This document shows, one piece after another, positions 8,673 through 18,144 of a stretch of 24,066 nucleotides of DNA. Every line of letters begins with the position of its first letter. Position 1 is the first letter of the stretch. Position numbers and translations under genes: made by a program. The DNA is from a virus (taxonomy: Duplodnaviria; Caudoviricetes): positions 1 through 24,066 of the IMG/VR virus record IMGVR_UViG_3300011334_000212; one strand, 5' to 3'. Under the pieces are notes generated by a model, which was not told where the DNA came from, made no database searches, and worked only from the letters and a program-made list of their open reading frames with translations.

Positions 8673-10515
8673 TTAAAACCTTACTTTCTATGAGAGAGAT
8701 CAACTTACTCGGAATTTCATTTGGGTCATTAATAACACTGTTTGCTTTGTAATAATCACAAACAGATTTACTACACAAACCCAAACCATAGATACTTACT
8801 TTCTTTGCTGCTTCTATTTCTTTAATAACTTTTAAAGTAAACTTTTCTAAGCCAAAAGAACTTTTAGAAGCTGCAGGACTACCATCAGACATAACTATTA
8901 GTATTCTTTTCTTTTCCTTTCTTTTTAGTAACCTATCATATGCCCACAAAATGTTTTCACCATCTGGATTACCTGCCATAAAATTACTACTTGTAGCAAA
9001 ATACTTTGTCAAGTCTTCGGTACTTACTTTAAGATTTGAAAAACTTTTATAGATAAACATCATTGGTGATACTTCTGATTTTAAATCTCTACCATCTGTA
9101 AAACCTAGTATTTCTATTGGTACAGTTAGAGTGGAACAAACCTCATTGAGAAGTAATGCTGAAGCTAGTGCGTTGTAAGCTTTGGTTCCTCCCATTGAAC
9201 CTGACATATCAATCAATACAGTAAGTGCAACATCACGTGTTTTATTCTCAATTTTTGTTTTAAAGATTTTGTCACTAAAACCTGGAGCCTTAAAACAAAT
9301 TCTAGACAGTTTTGATTGGTCTAGTTTTCCTTTTTTTGTTCCATATTGAGTTTGTACTTTAGCTCTAATTTGAATTAGCTTTCTAACTTGTTGTGCAAAA
9401 TTTTCTTGGGTAACTAACTTAGACTCCACTTCAAATTTATACCCCTTAAGAAATTTATCATTGTTAATAGTATTAAAATAAACATCTTGACCCAGTTTAT
9501 TTGGATAATCAATAACAATAAATTTGTTGTAGTCTGTAACATCCCAATTTACTACACTAGAAAGATCAACAGGTTTAAAGTTAATAACAACTTTGCCCAA
9601 CTCATCGCCTTCTTCAGGCATAGTCAAAGAAAAATTATCGAGGTCTTCTTTGGTAAGAACAATCTCTAAGATTTGATACTCTTCTTCTTTTAACCGTTCT
9701 TTTTTTTCGGAACTGTCTAAATCACCAGTTTTAATATCATCTTTTGTACTTTCTTTTGGTATTTCTTCATCTTTGTCGTCTTCATAATCCACGCTAGACG
9801 ACTTACCTTCCACTTCACTGAGCATTGGTTTGTTTTTAGTATCATCTGTAGCCTCTACTTTTACAGGTTTTTCTTTAAATGTGCATTTTTTCCCTATTTC
9901 TGTAAGAATATCAAAAGCTAATTGATATGTTGTTTCAGTACCTAGTCTTTTCTCAAGTATTTTATGACAAGCAATAAGACGATCACTGTAGTTATTAAGA
10001 ACATTTGTTATTTTTTTGTCTGGTATTGTTGTGCTAGTACTCAGTTCTATACTAGGAAAGAAAGAGCTTGACAGTTTAGTTTCCCAACATAATAGTGCTA
10101 CAGTTATTTTTGAAACAGGACTATTTTCTTTTTTTGCTTTGTTTAAAATAACAGATATTATTTTTGAGGTAGTTTCATCGTAGTTGTTTTTAAAACCTTT
10201 ATACTCTTTTGCTTCAATAGCATTAACTCTAGAATCTTCTAGAAAATTCCAGACAAAAGCTAAGATGTTGTTAGCAAGAACTTTCTTTTCTTTTAATACT
10301 TCAAAACAACTAAATCTATCGTGAGCAACTTCATGGTCTACAGATGCCATGAGTTCTTTTAGTTGGTCTTCAGTAGTTTTGTAAGTAATTTTAGGCAGAT
10401 AAATTGTTTTACCATCATGCCTAGGTTTATTTTCTTCTTCAAATACTACAGCAAGGCCAGATCTACCAGCACTTGCTCGTATGTATTTCATTACCTCAAT
10501 AGCTTGAGTAAGCAT
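8665..10515 (-). CDS. CobT-like vWA-domain protein with N-terminal HExxH metallopeptidase-like domain
   Basis: DHEVAH followed by NFLEDSRVN; acidic low-complexity linker; MIDAS DMSGS, NPDGE, VMSDGSP. Confidence 0.85.
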   Translation of the reverse strand: MLTQAIEVMKYIRASAGRSGLAVVFEEENKPRHDGKTIYLPKITYKTTEDQLKELMASVDHEVAHDRFSCFEVLKEKKVLANNILAFVWNFLEDSRVNAIEAKEYKGFKNNYDETTSKIISVILNKAKKENSPVSKITVALLCWETKLSSSFFPSIELSTSTTIPDKKITNVLNNYSDRLIACHKILEKRLGTETTYQLAFDILTEIGKKCTFKEKPVKVEATDDTKNKPMLSEVEGKSSSVDYEDDKDEEIPKESTKDDIKTGDLDSSEKKERLKEEEYQILEIVLTKEDLDNFSLTMPEEGDELGKVVINFKPVDLSSVVNWDVTDYNKFIVIDYPNKLGQDVYFNTINNDKFLKGYKFEVESKLVTQENFAQQVRKLIQIRAKVQTQYGTKKGKLDQSKLSRICFKAPGFSDKIFKTKIENKTRDVALTVLIDMSGSMGGTKAYNALASALLLNEVCSTLTVPIEILGFTDGRDLKSEVSPMMFIYKSFSNLKVSTEDLTKYFATSSNFMAGNPDGENILWAYDRLLKRKEKKRILIVMSDGSPAASKSSFGLEKFTLKVIKEIEAAKKVSIYGLGLCSKSVCDYYKANSVINDPNEIPSKLISLIESKVLNV

Positions 10516-10955
10516 TAAACACTCATTAAAAAGTTATGAACTTCTTTATGAACAACACCTTTATCTAAGTGTTCTGGAACACTGCTTAATAGCCTACAGA
10601 TACGGGCTACATAATCAACTTCAGTCACTGTTTCTTTAGTGTCTGTTTTCAAATCTTTAATTTTGTTTTGAAGAAATGTTTTACCATGAAACTTTCCATT
10701 GTCATCAATTAGTGTGATACCCAACTTCAAAGCTCCAAGTACTACACTCTTGCCTGATCTCCAAGGACCGGGCATAAATGTAATTTCAAAGTCTTTCTTG
10801 ATCAGTTTTTCAGTCTCCCGTAGTTCTTTAGCAAATGTTTCTAAAGTAGCATGTGTGTATGCTACGTTAATCATTTTTTCATAGGTACTGGTAGCTGATG
10901 CATCTGAAACTAAGCTTTCAGTTGCTGCTGTGTACAACGTCGATGGTGTATCCAT
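10515..10955 (-). CDS. Hypothetical protein coupled to the vWA gene
   Basis: SD GGAG; stop overlaps the vWA start (TAATG). Confidence 0.8.
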   Translation of the reverse strand: MDTPSTLYTAATESLVSDASATSTYEKMINVAYTHATLETFAKELRETEKLIKKDFEITFMPGPWRSGKSVVLGALKLGITLIDDNGKFHGKTFLQNKIKDLKTDTKETVTEVDYVARICRLLSSVPEHLDKGVVHKEVHNFLMSV

Positions 10956-10986
10956 GTTTTCTCCAAAACGGGCACGATTACCCTAC

Positions 10987-11016
10987 ATATCTCACTGTAT
11001 TTAAACAATGAGATAT
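10987..11016 (-). promoter_or_regulatory. Intergenic 12-bp stem-loop without a U-tract (possible processing or stability signal)
   Basis: Minus strand AUAUCUCAUUGU-UUAAAU-ACAGUGAGAUAU; U-G pair only on the minus strand. Confidence 0.5.
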
Positions 11017-11025
11017 ATAAGTCTT

Positions 11026-11250
11026 TTATTGCCAAGCAAGTGTGTGTCTAGGCCACAGGAACATACTGCTTTTCTTAGCTCCCAACTCTACTAACTCGTT
11101 TTCTGTCCACAGTTTCATAGGGTTGTCGTTGCTAAACCCCGGTGTAACATAGCACGGCAAGGTGTAGTGTGGTAACAATGTTATGCCATTTAGCACATAA
11201 ACTGTTTGTTCTGTTTTGTCGCTGATATCTGCTCTCATAATATCTTTCAT
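11026..11250 (-). CDS. Hypothetical early protein
   Basis: 74 aa, ATGA overlap with upstream gene. Confidence 0.72.
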   Translation of the reverse strand: MKDIMRADISDKTEQTVYVLNGITLLPHYTLPCYVTPGFSNDNPMKLWTENELVELGAKKSSMFLWPRHTLAWQ

Positions 11251-11444
11251 TTGTCAAACTCACTCATTTCACCATCATAAAACCAATTAAGGTACGTATA
11301 TATTCCATGCATAAAACTATTGTCTGTCTCGTTTGTTTCTTCTAAACCTGCTTCTTCCAAAGTAATTTTTTCTACTTTTGGAGAATCTTCCCAATTCATC
11401 TCATCAACAAGGTCTAATTGATTACAGATGTCTGATGTTTTCAC
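11247..11444 (-). CDS. Small highly acidic early protein
   Basis: GTG start with SD TAGGAG; about 17 D/E versus 4 K in 65 aa. Confidence 0.72.
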   Translation of the reverse strand: MKTSDICNQLDLVDEMNWEDSPKVEKITLEEAGLEETNETDNSFMHGIYTYLNWFYDGEMSEFDK

Positions 11445-11476
11445 AATAATAACTCCTATATTAAGTTAAATAAACT

Positions 11477-11605
11477 AAGGGCGAAGCCTCACGGCCCCCC
11501 CTTAAAGGGGCCGGGAGGTTAGCCCCTTTGTAAGCAAGCACCGACCCTAGCGGCCCGTATGCCAAACCGCTTGGCGGTTGGCATCTCGGGTTGCTGGGAG
11601 GGGCG
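11477..11605. ncRNA. Putative structured cis-element or ncRNA filling an early intergenic region
   Basis: GC-rich island with nested stems GCCCCT/AGGGGC, CCC/GGG, AGC/GCT, CCCG/CGGG, ATGCCA/TGGCAT, ACCGC/GCGGT, plus a second stem CCTC-A-CGGCCCC/GGGGCCG-G-GAGG and GGC-GAA-GCC. No family recognised. Confidence 0.55.
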
Positions 11606-11608
11606 CTA

Positions 11609-11821
11609 TCAATCTCCACCAAAGATTTCATCTTGACAAGGTTGGCAGATACCACTGATACCATATTCTTTTTCTGAAATATGATTACGAAAGCCTAAGT
11701 TATTAACTTTCTTTTTGCAGTTAATACATAGACCAGCATTGAGCCATGCTTTTGTTCCTGGGAACATATGCTCTAGTGCGTCCACCATCTCTGGTGATTT
11801 GTTAGACAAGGGTGTCTTCAT
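11609..11821 (-). CDS. Small zinc-finger protein (CxxC...FRxxxSxKEYxISGxCQxCQD)
   Basis: Two CxxC pairs; SD AGGAG; ATGA overlap. Confidence 0.8.
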   Translation of the reverse strand: MKTPLSNKSPEMVDALEHMFPGTKAWLNAGLCINCKKKVNNLGFRNHISEKEYGISGICQPCQDEIFGGD

Positions 11822-12033
11822 TTATCTTCTCCTTCTATAGTTACGTAGTCGGGCGCATCTTGGCGCTTAAGTACTACCATTTTGCATAGCAACTTGCGGT
11901 ATAGCTTGGACGCAACGTAATCAACCAAATCCCCAAAAGCATTGTCTGACATGTGCTCATCGTTGTTGTTAAGTGTGGCAAGCACGGCAAAGTCGCCGTC
12001 CTCTCGGTGGTATCCGATTGATACAGTTTTCAT
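11818..12033 (-). CDS. Hypothetical early protein
   Basis: 71 aa, ATGA overlaps on both sides, SD AAGGA. Confidence 0.75.
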   Translation of the reverse strand: MKTVSIGYHREDGDFAVLATLNNNDEHMSDNAFGDLVDYVASKLYRKLLCKMVVLKRQDAPDYVTIEGEDK

Positions 12034-12245
12034 ATAGTTGTCCTTTTAGGATTGAGTTGCTTTAACTCTTCTACATTGCTAATGAGCATGTAGTTGCTTT
12101 TATTGATGGGTGCTATGGTGTGCTGCACCTTACGTGCCAAGACTTCACCACAGGCCATACAGGTAGGTCTAAATGCCTTTGACCTGTGTGGCTCTACTCT
12201 TACCGCATAACACGACATACAGATTGGAAGATAGTTCTCGTTCAT
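12030..12245 (-). CDS. Small zinc-finger protein (CxxC...TCxxCGE...KSNY)
   Basis: CMSC and CMAC pairs; coupled to downstream gene. Confidence 0.8.
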   Translation of the reverse strand: MNENYLPICMSCYAVRVEPHRSKAFRPTCMACGEVLARKVQHTIAPINKSNYMLISNVEELKQLNPKRTTI

Positions 12246-12264
12246 GTGTTTTTACCGTTCCTAC

Positions 12265-12435
12265 TTACTCAATCAAATTAGAAGAAATAGCAACAGTACA
12301 TGAGATTAATCCCAAGAAACCAAACACATCAATTAAAAACTGAGTTTCTAAGTAGTCGTGTTGAAACAGTATTGCAGATAAACCCATGCCCACAAAGCAA
12401 GTAAAACCTATTAATGATGAAAGTTTTAAAATCAC
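12265..12435 (-). CDS. 56-aa two-TM membrane protein (MILKLSSLIGFTCFVGMGLSAILFQHDYLETQFLIDVFGFLGLISCTVAISSNLIE)
   Basis: GTG at 12435 with SD TAGGAG 8 nt upstream; fits the gap between neighbours without overlap; two hydrophobic segments. Not in ORF track. Confidence 0.72.
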   Translation of the reverse strand: MILKLSSLIGFTCFVGMGLSAILFQHDYLETQFLIDVFGFLGLISCTVAISSNLIE

Positions 12436-12449
12436 AATATATTCTCCTA

Positions 12450-12719
12450 TTAATAAATAGTACGATTACTATCCCATTTGTCCACAATTGGGGTAGAGAA
12501 GTTGTTACTAGGAACAAACTCTTCTAAACCAATAAAGATGTTCCACTCTTCCTTGCTAAGAATGTCTATGTCCTGATCGAGTAGCATCTCTACTACTTTA
12601 TCCATAGAGGTTTCAATCAACGAGCTATGTTTTACCCCGAGATCAAACTCGAAGTCAGTAATGCCATCACTCGCTTTGCGAATGACAGCATTGTTATTGA
12701 GAAGAAGTGCGTGGTACAT
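12450..12719 (-). CDS. Hypothetical acidic early protein
   Basis: SD GGAG; 89 aa. Confidence 0.75.
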   Translation of the reverse strand: MYHALLLNNNAVIRKASDGITDFEFDLGVKHSSLIETSMDKVVEMLLDQDIDILSKEEWNIFIGLEEFVPSNNFSTPIVDKWDSNRTIY

Positions 12720-12751
12720 AGTGGTGTATCTCCAAGAAAGAGTATGAACAG

Positions 12752-12784
12752 AAAAAAAGGTAGTAGCTATTAACTACTACCTTT
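12752..12784 (-). terminator. Intrinsic terminator after the first leftward gene
   Basis: Minus strand AAAGGUAGUAG-UUAAUAG-CUACUACC followed by U7. Confidence 0.88.
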
Positions 12785-12797
12785 AATCAACGCACTA

Positions 12798-13025
12798 TCA
12801 AGAAACCTTGCTACGTGCCGCTGCATCATCCTTGAGGAGAGAGCGAACAATCTTGATATCAGTGAAGATGTCCCGAACCGCTTGTGAACGAGGATTGTCA
12901 AACTTTTCCATGCTCCAGAGAGCATTAGCAATCAGTTGCTGTGCGAGAAAGATCTGCAATCCTGCAGGTTTGCCTTCCGACAGTTTGTTGAAAGCGTTGA
13001 AGTCGAAGTCGTTTTGCTGTGCCAT
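12798..13025 (-). CDS. First leftward (earliest) gene, 75-aa helical protein of unknown function
   Basis: Strong SD AAGGAG; followed by its own terminator; many C-ending codons (TTC, AAC, ATC). Confidence 0.82.
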   Translation of the reverse strand: MAQQNDFDFNAFNKLSEGKPAGLQIFLAQQLIANALWSMEKFDNPRSQAVRDIFTDIKIVRSLLKDDAAARSKVS

Positions 13026-13060
13026 TTGAAGCTCCTTGGTTGGTTAATGAGGAGGGAGGT

Positions 13061-13263
13061 AATTCGCCCCCCTCACAGGAGCCGGGCGTGAGGGCAAGCC
13101 CCGCAGGGGCGTAGTCGCCGAAGGCGATTGCCAAGGCAGAAAGGCGCAGCCCGTAGCCATGCCATAAAGGAGCAGAGCGACGACTGGCGTGGTTTCTGCA
13201 AAGTGAACGGAGCGAAGCGGAGAGAACGGTGGCAACCCGAACAAGAGGCGGGGGGGGCGTATT
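13061..13263 (+). other. Multibranch hairpin element rich in C-GNA-G triloops (putative ssDNA/cruciform signal)
   Basis: GCCCC-GCA-GGGGC, TCGCC-GAA-GGCGA, GGC-GCA-GCC, GC-GAA-GC; junction-closing stems GGCAA/TTGCC and GCAGAAA/TTTCTGC; outer stem CGCCCCCC/GGGGGGCG. Confidence 0.65.
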
Positions 13264-13536
13264 ATCGGAACCTTATTAGCTTGAAAAGGACGAAAGGCTG
13301 TGTAGGAAAGGATGGAAATAAGTGGGAATGTAAGAGGAAAGAACTGTGAGATTAGATGTGGTGTCTTAGAGCCACGATGATGGTGTACCTAGGGGTTGGT
13401 ATCAAACAATGTTTATCGTCGAAGGAAGGGCTGTTTAAACAGGTCCTAGAGGCATTGACGGTCGAGGAGAATGCTCGCACTCTCCGAGTGCTCCGCGTAT
13501 GAAGGAGAAGAGGAATGAGGTTGGTAAGGAATGAGG

Positions 13537-13549
13537 TAAGTTATTGATT
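13537..13549 (-). promoter_or_regulatory. IHF binding site
   Basis: Reverse complement AATCAATAACTTA matches the IHF consensus WATCAANNNNTTR exactly. Confidence 0.65.
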
Positions 13550-13577
13550 GGTAAAGGGTTGCATAAAACACCCTAAA

Positions 13578-13904
13578 TGTATATACAGTATACACCTACT
13601 TGTTGTAGAAATACAACAGTAAACAACTACTACAAAAGCTTTAAGTAGGTGGTGGTAGTAGGGGGAAGGGTAGGGTATACCCCTAGCGTTATAGTAGGGG
13701 GGAGGGGGGAAATGTTATTATAATAAATATATATATATAACAACTTATAACAATTGTTATAAGAAATAAACAAGGGGGGGATAGTACTTATAGTAGTTAT
13801 ATATATATATATATATATATATATAGCTATATATAGGTATACCTGTGTAACTACATACAGTTGTTCTAGGAGAACAAGTACTTGCTCTCATCCTAAAAGG
13901 ATGA
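13578..13904. repeat. Dense array of short palindromes/inverted repeats and G-tracts upstream of terS
   Basis: At least 11 dyads, including the perfect 20-mer CTTATAACAATTGTTATAAG (13744-13763). Confidence 0.8.
13798..13825. repeat. (TA)14 dinucleotide tract
   Basis: Direct read of the sequence; a shorter (AT)6 tract lies at 13727-13738. Confidence 0.95.
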
Positions 13905-13910
13905 TACAGT
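13882..13910 (+). promoter_or_regulatory. Putative sigma70-type promoter for the packaging/structural operon
   Basis: TTGCTC-N17-TACAGT with TGn extended -10, ending 29 nt before the terS ATG. Confidence 0.5.
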
Positions 13911-13939
13911 AGTAGGAGTTACAAAAAAGGTTAAAAGAT

Positions 13940-14488
13940 ATGAAAAGAAAGGTATCACTTGATCGTAGATACAAGAAGTCTGTATGGACAACTAACCAAA
14001 GGTTAGAAGCTGTCAGTACTTACTTGATGTTAGGATCAATGACAGAGACTGCCATTGTTACTGGTATTCCACTACCAACCTTAAAGACATGGAGATACCT
14101 AGAATGGTTTAAGGAGTATGCTCTTCAGCTTCAAAGTGAAGATGTTCAACAAATGGACTCTAATCTCAGGAGAGTTGTAGATAAATCACTTAAAGCAGTA
14201 GAGAATCGTTTAGACCTAGGAGATGCTCAGTTTAATCAAAAGACAGGGAAAATCACTCGTATTCCTGTTAAAGCACATGTAGCCTTAAAAATCACTACTG
14301 AACTCCTCAGTAAAAGAGAGAAAAACAAAGAGAGTCCTATGAAGGAACACCTAGAGAAGACTATTGATGACAGGCTACTTAAACTGTCAGAAGAGTTTGC
14401 TAGGTTTGCTAATACCAATAAAAAGGTATCAAAAGAACTTTTAGATGTTGATGTTGTAGCTACAGAAGTAACAACTAGTGTCAATTAA
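13940..14488 (+). CDS. terS: Terminase small subunit (N-terminal HTH)
   Basis: HTH-like GSMTETAIVTGIPLPTLKTW, helical C-terminus, overlaps the terL start. Confidence 0.75.
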   Translation: MKRKVSLDRRYKKSVWTTNQRLEAVSTYLMLGSMTETAIVTGIPLPTLKTWRYLEWFKEYALQLQSEDVQQMDSNLRRVVDKSLKAVENRLDLGDAQFNQKTGKITRIPVKAHVALKITTELLSKREKNKESPMKEHLEKTIDDRLLKLSEEFARFANTNKKVSKELLDVDVVATEVTTSVN

Positions 14489-16016
14489 ACCGAGTACATC
14501 TAAGCTCAACTCTTCAGTTATGGAAGGGTTTGTCAACTCTATCCTTAGAAAGAACTTTGATAAACCTGCTCCTACTCCAAATTTCCATAAAGAGATATGG
14601 GATTTTGTTACTAGTAGCAGCAAGCAAGTAGCCATAGCTGCACCTCGGTATCATGCCAAAAGTACTGCAGTAACTCATGCATATACCCTAGCTTCAGTTC
14701 TCTTTAGAGAGTCTAGGTACGTCCTTATAGTCTCAGATACTGTTACCCAAGCTGTTCAGTTCCTAGGAGACATTAAGAAAGAGATGCTAGACAACGAAGA
14801 CTTGAGGTCACTCTTCAGCATTAAAGATGGTCCATTCCCCAAAGATACGGAAGATGACTTGATTGTTGAATTAGAAGATGGACATACTTTTCGTATTCAA
14901 GCTAAAGGTTCTGAACAGAAACTTAGGGGTTTAAAGTGGGCTAATCTTCGTCCTGATCTCATCATTGGTGATGATATGGAAAACGATGAGATTGTTATGA
15001 ACAAGGACAGGCGTACCAAGTTCAAACGATGGTTTTATGGTGCTCTCATTCCTTGTGTTTCATCTACGGGTAAGATTAGGATTGTAGGAACTATCCTCCA
15101 CCTAGACAGTCTTTTAGAGAACTTAATGCCCAACTCTCAGTTAAGTTCTCATAGGGGTGTTAGGAGCCTTATTCAAGAAGACTTGAAGGAGTACTCTCTA
15201 AACGTATTGCCTTGGAGATCCATCAAATACCGTGCTCATACAGATGACTTTAAGACCCTCTTGTGGCCTGAAATGAAGTCTGCTGCAGAGTTTAAATTGC
15301 AGAAAGATGACTACGTTAGGCAGGGATTGGCTGATGTCTACTCCCAAGAAATGCTCAATATCCCTATGGATATAACCAGCACTTTCTTTAAAAAGCTTGA
15401 CTTTGTTCCTGTAAAGCCAGAAGATCGCAAAAAAAAACTGGTGTACTATGCCACCTGTGACTTGGCAGTATCCCAAGCACAAACAGCAGATTACTCTGCT
15501 TTTGTTGTAGGTGGCATGGATGATGAAGGAAGACTATACTGCATCCATGTTGTTAAAGAACGCATGGATGCCTTAGAAATTGTAGATACAATTTTAATGC
15601 TGCAAAAGATTTATAAGCCCGTACTCTTTGGAATCGAGCAGGGTACTATTCAGAAAGCTATTGGCCCATACTTAAATGAGGAAATGCTCAAGCGAGGAGA
15701 GTTTGTCAGTATTGTATTGTTAAAACCAAGCGGTGACAAACTTACTAGAGCTAGGAGTATTCAAGCTCGTATGAGAAGCGGAGCCTGTAAGTTTGATAAA
15801 GAAACTGATTGGTATCAGGACTTTGAAGATGAGCTACTCAGATTTCCTAGAGACAAACATGATGACCAAGTAGATGCTTGGGCTTACTTGGGCTTGATGC
15901 TTGATAGGATGTGGGAAGCTCCTTCTGAAAAAGAAATTGAGGAAGAAGAGTACGTGGCCTATTTAAAGGAAAACAACAAAACTGACTCAGGTCGTTCTGT
16001 TACTTGTGGGTACTAA
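14478..16016 (+). CDS. terL: Terminase large subunit
   Basis: Walker A APRYHAKST, Walker B LIIGDDME, coupling motif GTI, nuclease CDLA and HDDQVDA. Confidence 0.95.
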   Translation: MSIKPSTSKLNSSVMEGFVNSILRKNFDKPAPTPNFHKEIWDFVTSSSKQVAIAAPRYHAKSTAVTHAYTLASVLFRESRYVLIVSDTVTQAVQFLGDIKKEMLDNEDLRSLFSIKDGPFPKDTEDDLIVELEDGHTFRIQAKGSEQKLRGLKWANLRPDLIIGDDMENDEIVMNKDRRTKFKRWFYGALIPCVSSTGKIRIVGTILHLDSLLENLMPNSQLSSHRGVRSLIQEDLKEYSLNVLPWRSIKYRAHTDDFKTLLWPEMKSAAEFKLQKDDYVRQGLADVYSQEMLNIPMDITSTFFKKLDFVPVKPEDRKKKLVYYATCDLAVSQAQTADYSAFVVGGMDDEGRLYCIHVVKERMDALEIVDTILMLQKIYKPVLFGIEQGTIQKAIGPYLNEEMLKRGEFVSIVLLKPSGDKLTRARSIQARMRSGACKFDKETDWYQDFEDELLRFPRDKHDDQVDAWAYLGLMLDRMWEAPSEKEIEEEEYVAYLKENNKTDSGRSVTCGY

Positions 16017-16020
16017 AGAC

Positions 16021-18144
16021 ATGAAACTTAAAGATAAATTTAAAATTGAAGACCTCATGTATGAGGCCAATATTGCCGAGCTTTTAGGTAAAGAAGATCT
16101 TCAAACAATTGGCTATCAAATAGTTTCAGATTTTGATAATGATCTTTTATCCCGTACCCAATGGGAAAAACGAACAGAAGCTTCTTTAAAACTTGCTCTT
16201 CAAGTAGCTGAAACTAAAAATTTTCCTTGGCCTAATGCAAGCAATGTTAAGTTTCCCCTTATCACTATTGCTGCACTTCAGTACCATGCTCGTAGTTACC
16301 CTGTTTTAATTGACAGTGACTTGCCTGTAAAGTGCCGTGTTATTGGAGATGATAAAGATGGACTTCGTGCTCTTCGTGCTGCTCGTGTAGAGCAACACAT
16401 GAGCTACCAACTTCTTGAAGAAGATGAAGATTGGGAATCAGAAATGGACAAGGTTCTTATTACACAACCTATAGTAGGCTGTGCTTTTAAGAAAACCTAC
16501 TTTGATCCTATTCGTAAGCACAACATTTCTGAGAATGTTCTAGCTAAAGACTTGGTTGTTAACTATTGGACCAAAAGCCTAGAGACAGCTAGTCGTATTA
16601 CGCATGTGCTCCAGATGACCAAGAACGAAATCTATGAGCGAGTAGCTCGTGGATTGTGGCTAGAAATATCAGAAGACAAGCAACAACAATCTGCTTCTAT
16701 TCTTGCGGGTAGTGGCTTACAGAACCTACAAGACAAGATCCAAGGTTTAACTCCTCCTGAACCCAGCGACTCAAGCACTCCAATAGAAATTCTTGAACAG
16801 CACTGCCATATTGACTTTGATGATGATGGCTATGCAGAACCATATATAGTCTATGTTAGAAAAGACAACAAACAAGTAGCCCGAATTGTAGCTAGGTACA
16901 CCAAACCCGATGTTGAGTACAACAGTAAGGACGTAGTACTCAGTATTAAAGCAGAGCAGTACTTTACAAAGTACCCTTTTGTTCCTTCTCCTGATGGTGG
17001 ATTCTATGACTTAGGCTTTGGGGTTCTTCTTGGACCTCTTAACGAGTCTATCAACACAATTGTTAACCAATTGGTAGATGCAGGAACAATGTCAAATACG
17101 GCTGGAGGATTTCTTAGCCGTGGAGTCAAACTTAGAGGAGGAAGTAGTTCTTTTAACCCTATGGAATGGAAACCAGTAGACACTACTGGTGATGATTTGC
17201 GTAAAGGCATTGTTCCACTGCCAGTTAGGGAGCCTTCCCAAGTACTCTTTACCCTTTTAAACCTACTAATCAACTACGGGGAACGAATTGGAGGTTCAGT
17301 AGACATCCTAACTGGGCAAAACCCTGGTCAAAACACCCCTGCCGAGACTACTAGGACTATGGCAGAGCAGGGAATGAAGGTGTTTAACGGTATTTTTAAG
17401 AGAACACACCGTAGCTTAAAGCAAGAGTTTCGTAAACTGTACCGTCTTAACCAGATATTTGTTACTGATAACACCAAGTACTTTTCAAACGTAGAAAACC
17501 AAGGAGTTATATTGGCAACAGACTATAACGGCCCAGTTACAGACGTTATGCCTACTGCTGATCCTAGTGTTACGTCTGATTCACAGCGTATCCAACAGGC
17601 AATGGCTATTGCTCAACGAGTAAGCACTGCTCCCGGTCTTTACAACCGATATGAAGCAGAGTATGCATTTTTGAAAGCAATGAAAGTTACCAACATTGAC
17701 AAACTTCTTCCTGATCCTGCTGGTCCAAATGCCATACCTTCACAACCAGATCCCAAGCTCCAGATAGAACAGATGAAAGCTGAAACCAGAAAGGTTGAGG
17801 CAGAACTAGCCATGAAAATGGGGCTTCTTAAACTTATGGGTGAAGCAGAACTCAACCAAGCAAAGATTAAAAAGCTTGAAGCAGAAGCAGAATCAACCAA
17901 AATTGGTATTGCTACAGAAGGACAGAAGATACGTATCCAAGAAATCAACAGCCAAATTGGATTACAAAGAGAACGTAGAGAAGGTATTCTTAGTTCTATA
18001 GATACCATGAACAAGGTCTATTCGTATATGACGGAAGACCAAAAGAGGCAACAACCCTCCCAGATGCCACAAGAAACGTCAGAAATGACTAGTGTGGACA
18101 ACATGGGAGAGATGAAGCAAGCAGAGCAACAGCTATTACAGTAA
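16021..18144 (+). CDS. Portal protein (podovirus type, long C-terminal coiled coil)
   Basis: Follows terL; about 700 aa; PWPNAS, GCAFKKTYFD, NQLVDAG motifs; Q/E/K-rich C-terminus. Start ATG 16021 (alternative GTG 16006). Confidence 0.9.
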   Translation: MKLKDKFKIEDLMYEANIAELLGKEDLQTIGYQIVSDFDNDLLSRTQWEKRTEASLKLALQVAETKNFPWPNASNVKFPLITIAALQYHARSYPVLIDSDLPVKCRVIGDDKDGLRALRAARVEQHMSYQLLEEDEDWESEMDKVLITQPIVGCAFKKTYFDPIRKHNISENVLAKDLVVNYWTKSLETASRITHVLQMTKNEIYERVARGLWLEISEDKQQQSASILAGSGLQNLQDKIQGLTPPEPSDSSTPIEILEQHCHIDFDDDGYAEPYIVYVRKDNKQVARIVARYTKPDVEYNSKDVVLSIKAEQYFTKYPFVPSPDGGFYDLGFGVLLGPLNESINTIVNQLVDAGTMSNTAGGFLSRGVKLRGGSSSFNPMEWKPVDTTGDDLRKGIVPLPVREPSQVLFTLLNLLINYGERIGGSVDILTGQNPGQNTPAETTRTMAEQGMKVFNGIFKRTHRSLKQEFRKLYRLNQIFVTDNTKYFSNVENQGVILATDYNGPVTDVMPTADPSVTSDSQRIQQAMAIAQRVSTAPGLYNRYEAEYAFLKAMKVTNIDKLLPDPAGPNAIPSQPDPKLQIEQMKAETRKVEAELAMKMGLLKLMGEAELNQAKIKKLEAEAESTKIGIATEGQKIRIQEINSQIGLQRERREGILSSIDTMNKVYSYMTEDQKRQQPSQMPQETSEMTSVDNMGEMKQAEQQLLQ

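Follow-up and report, generated by a model that had tools for sequence, protein, structure and literature searches.

In a T7-like podophage, the strand serving as template for the first early gene carries a conserved sequence able to fold back on itself through nested helices, on one strand only. We examined this element in a 24,066-nucleotide genome fragment (IMG/VR record IMGVR_UViG_3300011334_000212; hereafter the window), where it lies just upstream of a leftward gene, gene 1; it recurs across related freshwater phages, which form a widespread group. The foldback is real, and we did not find it described in the open-access literature searched. The sequences show a fold confined to the plus strand, whose helices covary and whose loops and mismatches are of the DNA type, together with a non-coding imitation of the gene start and another copy ahead of a further early gene. 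Our confidence in the nested fold of the template (plus) strand is high, and it is very probable that the folded molecule is DNA rather than RNA. We predict a promoter role for the element, with the evidence about evenly balanced. Our tentative reading of its form is a promoter resembling Frpo, situated on the single-stranded template of gene 1, with a sigma54-like core and read by host RNA polymerase.

Profile matches of its open reading frames identify the window as a podophage fragment with two divergent arms. The leftward arm encodes CobT/CobS-like proteins, a primase, a DnaB-like helicase, a family A polymerase, an exonuclease, and endonuclease I, and the rightward arm encodes terminase, portal, GroES, and capsid. 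The family A polymerase is nearest to those of Vibrio ICP2-like phages (33-35%), and the capsid to those of Manatee Spring phage and Alcaligenes phage QDWS535; ICP2 itself, Manatee Spring phage, and QDWS535 lack both the core of the element and a long foldback. Metagenome runs containing the window phage are of viral, freshwater, drinking-water, and sediment origin. Positions 13061-13263 are identical in an independent assembly (a contig from run X1 covering 10500-16433). Relative to the window, three runs have a 4-nt insertion at 13865 and four have a G>T change at 12751. Contig ends near 13600-13980 are consistent with an AT repeat or low coverage, not with termini.

Relatives were gathered through the gene 1 protein, terminase, and DNA patterns; four are complete (G001, G003, G004, and G005; 44-50 kb). 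The DNA pattern yielded 117 loci, mostly chance matches, from which those with an upstream Shine-Dalgarno (SD) context were kept (46 rows, 3 dropped). The sequences are related, and the counts given below are accordingly not independent events. BLASTN of 12700-13950 against GenBank phages returned chance matches only, the element pattern was not found in GTDB genomes, and gene 1 was found neither in GenBank phages nor in GTDB genomes. The features of the region are as follows.

12756..12784, minus strand: intrinsic-terminator-like hairpin ending gene 1, assigned from sequence
12798..13025, minus strand: gene 1, encoding a 75-residue, three-helix protein (184 homologues; AF2 pLDDT 88)
13032..13052, plus strand: left outer arm, comprising an anti-SD (13032-37) and an 11-nt strand (13042-52), pairing with 13271-81 and 13286-90
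13059..13076, plus strand: 5′ strand of closing stem P0, with a conserved CCCTCAC at its end; flanking pairs compensatory in 5-12 of 27 sequences
13081..13094, plus strand: 5′ strands of P1 (13081-83) and P2 (13088-94, with tandem G·A), from covariation
13098..13127, plus strand: two GNA-triloop side hairpins (13098-110 and 13115-27), exchangeable modules
13128..13142, plus strand: 5′ strands of P3 (13128-33) and P4 (13136-42), with compensatory pairs in 4/5 and 3/6
13143..13156, plus strand: GCA-triloop hairpin and linker, looped out of the core template arm
13157..13164, plus strand: 5′ arm of core stem P5 (RTGMCA)
13165..13184, plus strand: apical arm with tandem G·A pairs and a triloop
13184..13200, plus strand: core 3′ arm, CTGGCGTGGTTTCTGCA, with invariant TGGCG and GC ten bases apart, resembling sigma54 -24/-12 boxes
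13205..13227, plus strand: optional tandem-G·A/GAA mini-hairpin
13230..13266, plus strand: 3′ strands of P3, P2, P1, and P0, from alignment and covariation
13271..13500 (right limit approximate), plus strand: right outer arm, non-coding and purine-rich
11474..11600, plus strand: element 2, a paralogue with core arms at 11550-64 and 11578-94

A first-pass annotation made from the letters alone had described 13061-13263 as a cloverleaf of GNA-triloop hairpins with two identically built three-way junctions, and every sequence that it quoted is present at its position. C-GNA-G hairpins with stems of at least three pairs number three in this interval, which 4 of 5000 dinucleotide shuffles match. 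The hairpins stand up as real and conserved features of one strand, but the unit then outlined is only the tip of a fold that extends further, across the start of gene 1, and its first junction was mis-paired. Covariation upstream of gene 1 homologues supports a nested plus-strand fold. For this analysis we used 27 type-A sequences of the 40 parsed, excluding three of another architecture and near-duplicates; RNAalifold on these 27 recovers the closing stem and P1-P3. The resulting 31-pair structure is 97.0% paired, with compensatory changes at 11 of its 31 pairs, and outscores all 500 shuffles and all slid controls, a score that is not a p-value because the structure was drawn from the same, related sequences. 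Covariation bears out the second proposed junction (P4, 13136-42/13193-99; P5, 13157-64/13185-92) and the stem closing the whole unit. The pairing proposed for the first junction (GGCAA/TTGCC) fails: just 77.8% of cells are paired, 16 of 27 sequences disrupt the second G-C pair, and 35 of 500 shuffles reach as high a covariation score. TTGCCA (13128-33) covaries instead with TGGCAA (13230-35), producing a four-way junction. The two junctions are therefore not built alike.

Variation between runs points the same way for P2, where 13092 G>A co-occurs with a compensating 13238 C>T in three further runs. Folding energies of 13050-13280, which the annotation had suggested comparing between strands, are unremarkable for DNA (z -1.5 plus, -1.1 minus), and for RNA are z -3.0 on the plus strand and -0.8 on the minus strand. 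The GTAG linker common to both proposed junctions is not conserved, occurring in 5 of 27 rows at linker 1 and 3 of 27 at linker 2 (by eye, alignment A3). Together with the finding of a Y1 HUH nuclease (PF01797) in 0 of 5 records (the control was detected in 6 of 14 genomes), this variability speaks against the REP/RAYT signature once read into the linker. CCCTCAC in the closing stem may resemble T3/T7 phage promoters, though no such polymerase is present here. By eye, the C-rich strand of the closing stem may pair instead with a G-rich stretch on its left (window 13048-13074); this alternative is available in most relatives and would form a hairpin in the gene 1 leader.

The element is tied to its gene, and its constant part is a core stem to which the annotation gave no special place. 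It lies just upstream of gene 1 in 62 of 63 distinct relatives, counting upstream regions of at least 300 nt. The core RTGMCA...CTGGCGY occurs in 62 of these 63 regions, the remaining one carrying a compensated variant, and in 42 of 43 members of a set gathered by protein only, where the single miss is an incomplete contig. The invariance of the anchors TG and CTGGCG, carried by 62 of 63 upstream regions, is partly by construction. The core lies 117-181 nt from the start codon (130-146 nt for the 10th-90th percentile), and this distance holds in two unrelated architectures, the second of which is poor in GNA loops, forms a 5′ hairpin of its own, and carries, below the same core, a bubble rich in C/A. 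In several relatives, a terminator read by eye stands directly right of the element, so that gene 1 must have a transcription start inside the element. No conserved sigma70 box appears among right-flank k-mers or in the alignment. Translation of the element is unlikely, since its overlapping reading frames have TTG starts and indels of any length are tolerated. Rfam returned nothing at the gathering score and, by E-value, only chance matches to AT repeats. Among the contigs of RNA run X20, one, from a relative, spans 12870-13059 and none spans the element; they are uninformative on starts or on absence. The gene 1 protein has no match in Pfam, PHROG, or PDB, and fold searches returned uncharacterised phage proteins only, with none from the PDB.

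Strand polarity, loops, and mismatches agree on a plus-strand, DNA-type fold, as the annotation had favored. Across 43 elements, C-GNA-G hairpins number 149 on the plus strand and 2 on the minus strand, with 21 in shuffles. The plus-strand triloops use all four middle bases (GAA 66, GCA 46, GGA 21, GTA 16), and GNRA tetraloops make up 22 of 182 plus-strand GNA/GNNA/TT loops. The apical triloop is AGA in the window and GNA in close relatives, and side hairpins are exchanged as modules between relatives. GCGNAGC and GCGNNAGC are described as extraordinarily stable DNA mini-hairpins that are far weaker as RNA (excerpts of PMC13037366). On the plus strand the core contains one T·G pair and one position that is C-G or A·G (41/21); its R-Y pair is A-T in 37, G-C in 23, and G·T in 2 of 62 elements. 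A cruciform, also raised by the annotation, does not fit, as its minus strand would bear A·C and pyrimidine mismatches.

The plus strand is the template of gene 1, and this template forms the left arm of the foldback; the right outer arm is, in relatives, a degenerate inverted copy of gene 1, eroded beyond ~13300 in the window. The right flank pairs with the template of the gene 1 SD and first codons at z>3 in 49 of 62 elements versus 2 of 54 control windows, and deeper into gene 1 in 10/61 and 11/55 versus 0 and 4/53 in controls. The arms reach 14-338 nt into the gene. A recognisable, frameshifted inverted copy is present in 8 of 62, extending 238-338 nt from the start codon, and these 8 span most or all of gene 1, some including its terminator; alignments show that the outer arm extends to the equivalent terminator hairpin in relatives L259, L035, L300, and L168. 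The long right arms are non-coding, with stop-free runs of just 37-49 codons. Considered alone, the window’s outer arm is not significant (z -0.1, 0.2, 0.2), and only an 11-bp helix (13042-52/13271-81) and the SD helix are apparent. We gave every mismatch type the same score and corrected for composition in 24 of 36 non-redundant arms; on the plus strand, G·T mismatches are enriched (2.06), as are G·A (1.51), A·G (1.45), and T·G (1.43), while those containing C are depleted (0.26-0.47). This pattern argues against a cruciform or an mRNA fold, either of which would call for the reverse. Single-strand deamination could add G·T but not G·A mismatches, and either cause points to a single plus strand.

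The core resembles a sigma54 promoter when it is read through the fold. In published descriptions, the GG and GC of the nifH promoter stand ten bases apart and sigma54 polymerase binds tightly to a -12/-11 mismatch (PMC5505868); this polymerase requires an AAA+ activator (PMC7057263). The element resembles such promoters in its TGGC/TGC boxes, in a mismatch or fork after the -12 GC, and, in some copies, in the ten-base GG-GC spacing. GC follows ten bases after GG on the 3′ arm in 45 of 62 copies of element 1 and 12 of 27 of element 2, compared with 46 of 757 in the background. The linear spacing of this arm is off in 17/62 and 15/27, respectively, and off-spacing copies retain about ten pairs in the fold through bulges. 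Between the same two points the 5′ arm measures 6-54 nt, its partner arm 10-12, and the linear minus strand of element 1 has GG and GC ten bases apart in 17 of 62. With hairpins looped out of the 5′ arm, the spacing is kept solely in the fold, where the two boxes lie one helical turn apart, which differs from sigma54 promoters as described. The -12-like pair is the G-C at 13136-37. The helix is never fully paired at both -11 and -10 (62/62, with the partner picked automatically), and breaks at the first or second pair past the GC in all 62. On duplex DNA the 3′ arm would be a promoter of the opposite direction, and a leftward reading of the duplex is interrupted by inserts or by GG->GT (21/62 have A at the M position). 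The window site scores 11 of 14 against a sigma54 consensus, and six other window sites score as well or better. No activator or enhancer was seen, and the phage’s CobS-like ATPase lacks a GAFTGA-like loop. From this analysis, sigma54 is a possible but doubtful reader of the promoter.

Element 2 lies directly upstream of the SD of the gene at 11247-11444 and shares a 20-nt stretch with element 1. Its position directly before an early-gene SD recurs in 28 of 44 loci, and TTGC is found in 22 of 27 copies (TGC being required by the search pattern). It has no outer arm; its GNA loops number 35 on the plus strand versus 9 on the minus strand. Model R1 did not detect it. A 67-residue reading frame at 11461-11664 overlaps element 2 and is probably no gene. 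The core 5′ arm also recalls the nick sites TACT/RTGMC of tf/LUZ24-like phages, in which RTGMC has the same degenerate positions (excerpts of PMC3517423, PMC11780129), but TACT is absent before the core and TACTRTGMC occurs 0-3 times per 15-24 kb here.

Promoters that act on single-stranded DNA are known from conjugative plasmids and ssDNA phages. We propose that, once single-stranded, the template strand of gene 1 would fold back on itself and the fold would rebuild a promoter. The 3′ arm would serve as non-template strand opposite a template formed by the 5′ arm, which would direct synthesis leftward into gene 1, probably from a start ~100 nt before its start codon. The outer arm may furnish the downstream non-template strand and let the RNA leave its template, and the mini-hairpins may keep SSB and nucleases away. 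The template for gene 1 transcription would then be single-stranded DNA at the early end of the genome, which might arise when the entering end is resected, when a lagging strand is left unfinished, or by displacement as terminal repeats are copied. In the Caulobacter phage RLK, a distant relative with a 33% identical capsid, the terminal repeat stops 278 bp short of the first rightward gene; by this geometry, the early template strand would have its 3′ end at the early terminus and would be the one left by 5′ resection or by an unfinished lagging strand. To our knowledge, no single-stranded stage is known for such tailed phages. A broader and unlikely proposition is that these phages plan for a single-stranded early end, the foldback duplex carrying a sigma54-type promoter, a ribosome-binding site, and up to the whole of gene 1 with its terminator, so that gene 1 would switch on upon loss of the partner strand, for example when a host nuclease attacks the entering end.

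The nearest parallel to this promoter is Frpo/ssi of plasmids F and ColIb-P9, whose fold, as described in excerpts of PMC9849209 and PMC11541004, restores promoter boxes while the plasmid DNA is single-stranded and falls silent once that DNA becomes duplex. Frpo, as those excerpts present it, is a stem-loop, long and imperfect, that lies on the template strand ahead of the first-expressed genes, with boxes rebuilt in the fold, two homologous copies, and use of the host polymerase. We find such a stem-loop on the template strand upstream of the presumed first-expressed gene here. The boxes differ: those of Frpo are -35/-10, and the stem of the element lacks canonical -35/-10 boxes and has a -24/-12-like core with no conserved sigma70 boxes. 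Delivery differs as well, in that the plasmid leading region arrives single-stranded and the terminase, portal, capsid, and polymerase here are those of a tailed dsDNA phage. The element further departs from Frpo, as far as those excerpts describe it, in its multibranch GNA apex and in a stem that can span a whole gene. No Frpo-like device for tailed dsDNA phages is reported in the open-access literature searched. If the proposal is true, the conserved foldback of one strand over its first gene implies that a dsDNA podophage passes through an overlooked single-stranded stage, a phage without an RNA polymerase would couple gene expression to the state of its DNA, and folding would assemble a sigma54-type core, a promoter of a new architecture. 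The element itself is small, and dozens of natural variants carry compensatory changes.

A promoter or priming role, as the annotation had proposed, is plausible, and other functions must be weighed. The element could be a single-strand initiation signal, bound on the lagging-strand template by the phage primase/helicase or by host PriA and priming minus-strand synthesis in the manner of phiX174/ColE1, G4, or RSF1010 ssiA, which we judge unlikely. The phage does encode a primase, a DnaB-like helicase, and a family A polymerase. Two stretches that we take to be primosome assembly sites, one in the phiX174 F-G intergenic region and one downstream of the ColE1 origin, contain the same modules, GC-GNA-GC mini-hairpins flanked by tandem G·A or AA/GC loops. 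Mini-hairpins also mark the G4 and RSF1010 priming sites (excerpts of PMC13037366). These modules, however, are optional in the element, model R1 finds nothing in the phiX174 and ColE1 loci, and priming leaves the fixed start-codon distance, the two copies before an SD, and the pairing with the gene start unexplained. Priming is compatible with the favored promoter reading, since Frpo also primes, according to the title of the cited paper. Somewhat less probable is an end-processing device, in which the plus-strand 3′ end folds back to protect itself and to prime its own extension or terminal-repeat copying; the inverted gene 1 copy would then stem from fold-back synthesis of this kind and have decayed at rates that differ. 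Excerpts describing Streptomyces telomeres (PMC5449611) report packed palindromes, GNA loops with sheared G:A pairs, a cloverleaf, and a 3′ single strand. The element shares this GNA/tandem-G·A vocabulary, with 22 nt of a Streptomyces plasmid telomere identical to the mini-hairpin 13205..13227 (E 0.6, a likeness of design only). The terminal-repeat geometry of RLK would place the plus-strand 3′ end beyond the element, the arms vary from 14 to 338 nt, and deamination of single-stranded DNA could account for C>T and A>G changes on the right arm. Against this, element 2 is internal with the same core, assemblies run through the region, some relatives have genes right of the element, and G·A and A·G transversion mismatches are enriched too. 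The element is also linked to a gene start, and no terminal-protein match (nor any Tap/Tpg) was seen among the ORFs scanned.

A plus-strand RNA, antisense to gene 1 and regulating it through its own fold, is improbable. G·U pairs are native to RNA, the plus-strand RNA energy noted above is low, and some loops are GNRA tetraloops, but the 149 triloops, many on 2-bp stems, and the non-GNRA GNYA loops follow DNA rules; Rfam has no match, and no rightward promoter was found left of gene 1. We give still less weight to an ordinary duplex sigma54 site directed toward the late arm, lying in an old inverted duplication with the hairpins secondary. In its favor, most copies have the N10 spacing, and one relative lacking the foldback (L046, MW202796.1) has a 13/14 sigma54-like site at 18082, directed toward the late arm, ~100 nt from an early gene start and at the same place as the element. 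Covariation across the whole fold and the retention of about ten pairs by bulging in off-spacing copies argue against it, as does element 2, where it would run antisense into early genes. The lead of the annotation, N4-type cruciform hairpin promoters read by an injected virion RNA polymerase, is highly improbable. N4 promoters are described as a 5-bp, GNA-capped hairpin on the template strand (excerpts of PMC13037366), which the element’s hairpins fit. The N4 hairpin is constant in form and position, whereas the hairpins here vary or are absent, the fold covers 200-700 nt, and the minus strand cannot mirror it. The remark that no RNA polymerase gene was in view in the window extends to whole genomes: a T7-type RNA polymerase was found in 0 of 4 complete relatives (the T7 control was detected at E 1e-109) and, in a separate search, in 0 of 5 records. 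No virion polymerase was found either; 30 chosen ORFs of the four complete relatives, including the largest (1151-1960 aa), gave no polymerase match in Pfam or PHROGs. That large virion protein is unassigned, a point in favor of the N4-type reading, its single-sequence AF2 model reaching only pLDDT 40 and Atlas searches leading to unnamed clusters.

The large virion protein, the product of the largest ORFs in L245, L248, L251, and L255, combines a common C-terminal part with long, variable inserts, and a GARS-like ATP-grasp gene follows it directly in two complete relatives. A 20-nt match to the element in ~1000 F-like plasmids was rejected as chance, since it falls in coding sequence without further hairpins. 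The Mycolicibacterium plasmid NZ_KY349138.1 carries, beside parB (880-1035 of locus L243), a cluster of GNA mini-hairpins matching 13098-13126 at 29 of 31 nt, a possible single-strand signal. Window positions 13692-13841, upstream of the small terminase gene, contain purine tracts and a long TA repeat and are a candidate packaging or origin region; 13692-13785 is kept in relatives, and TA-rich tracts occupy the same position in QDWS535 and L046. Finally, a near-palindromic motif, TGTTACTAG(T/G)AACA, occurs at 2242, 12503, and 14606 of the window and in 12-24 copies per complete relative, often within genes. Its non-palindromic form lies mostly on one strand and its start resembles the TACT nick motif of tf-like phages, making it a candidate nick or binding site.
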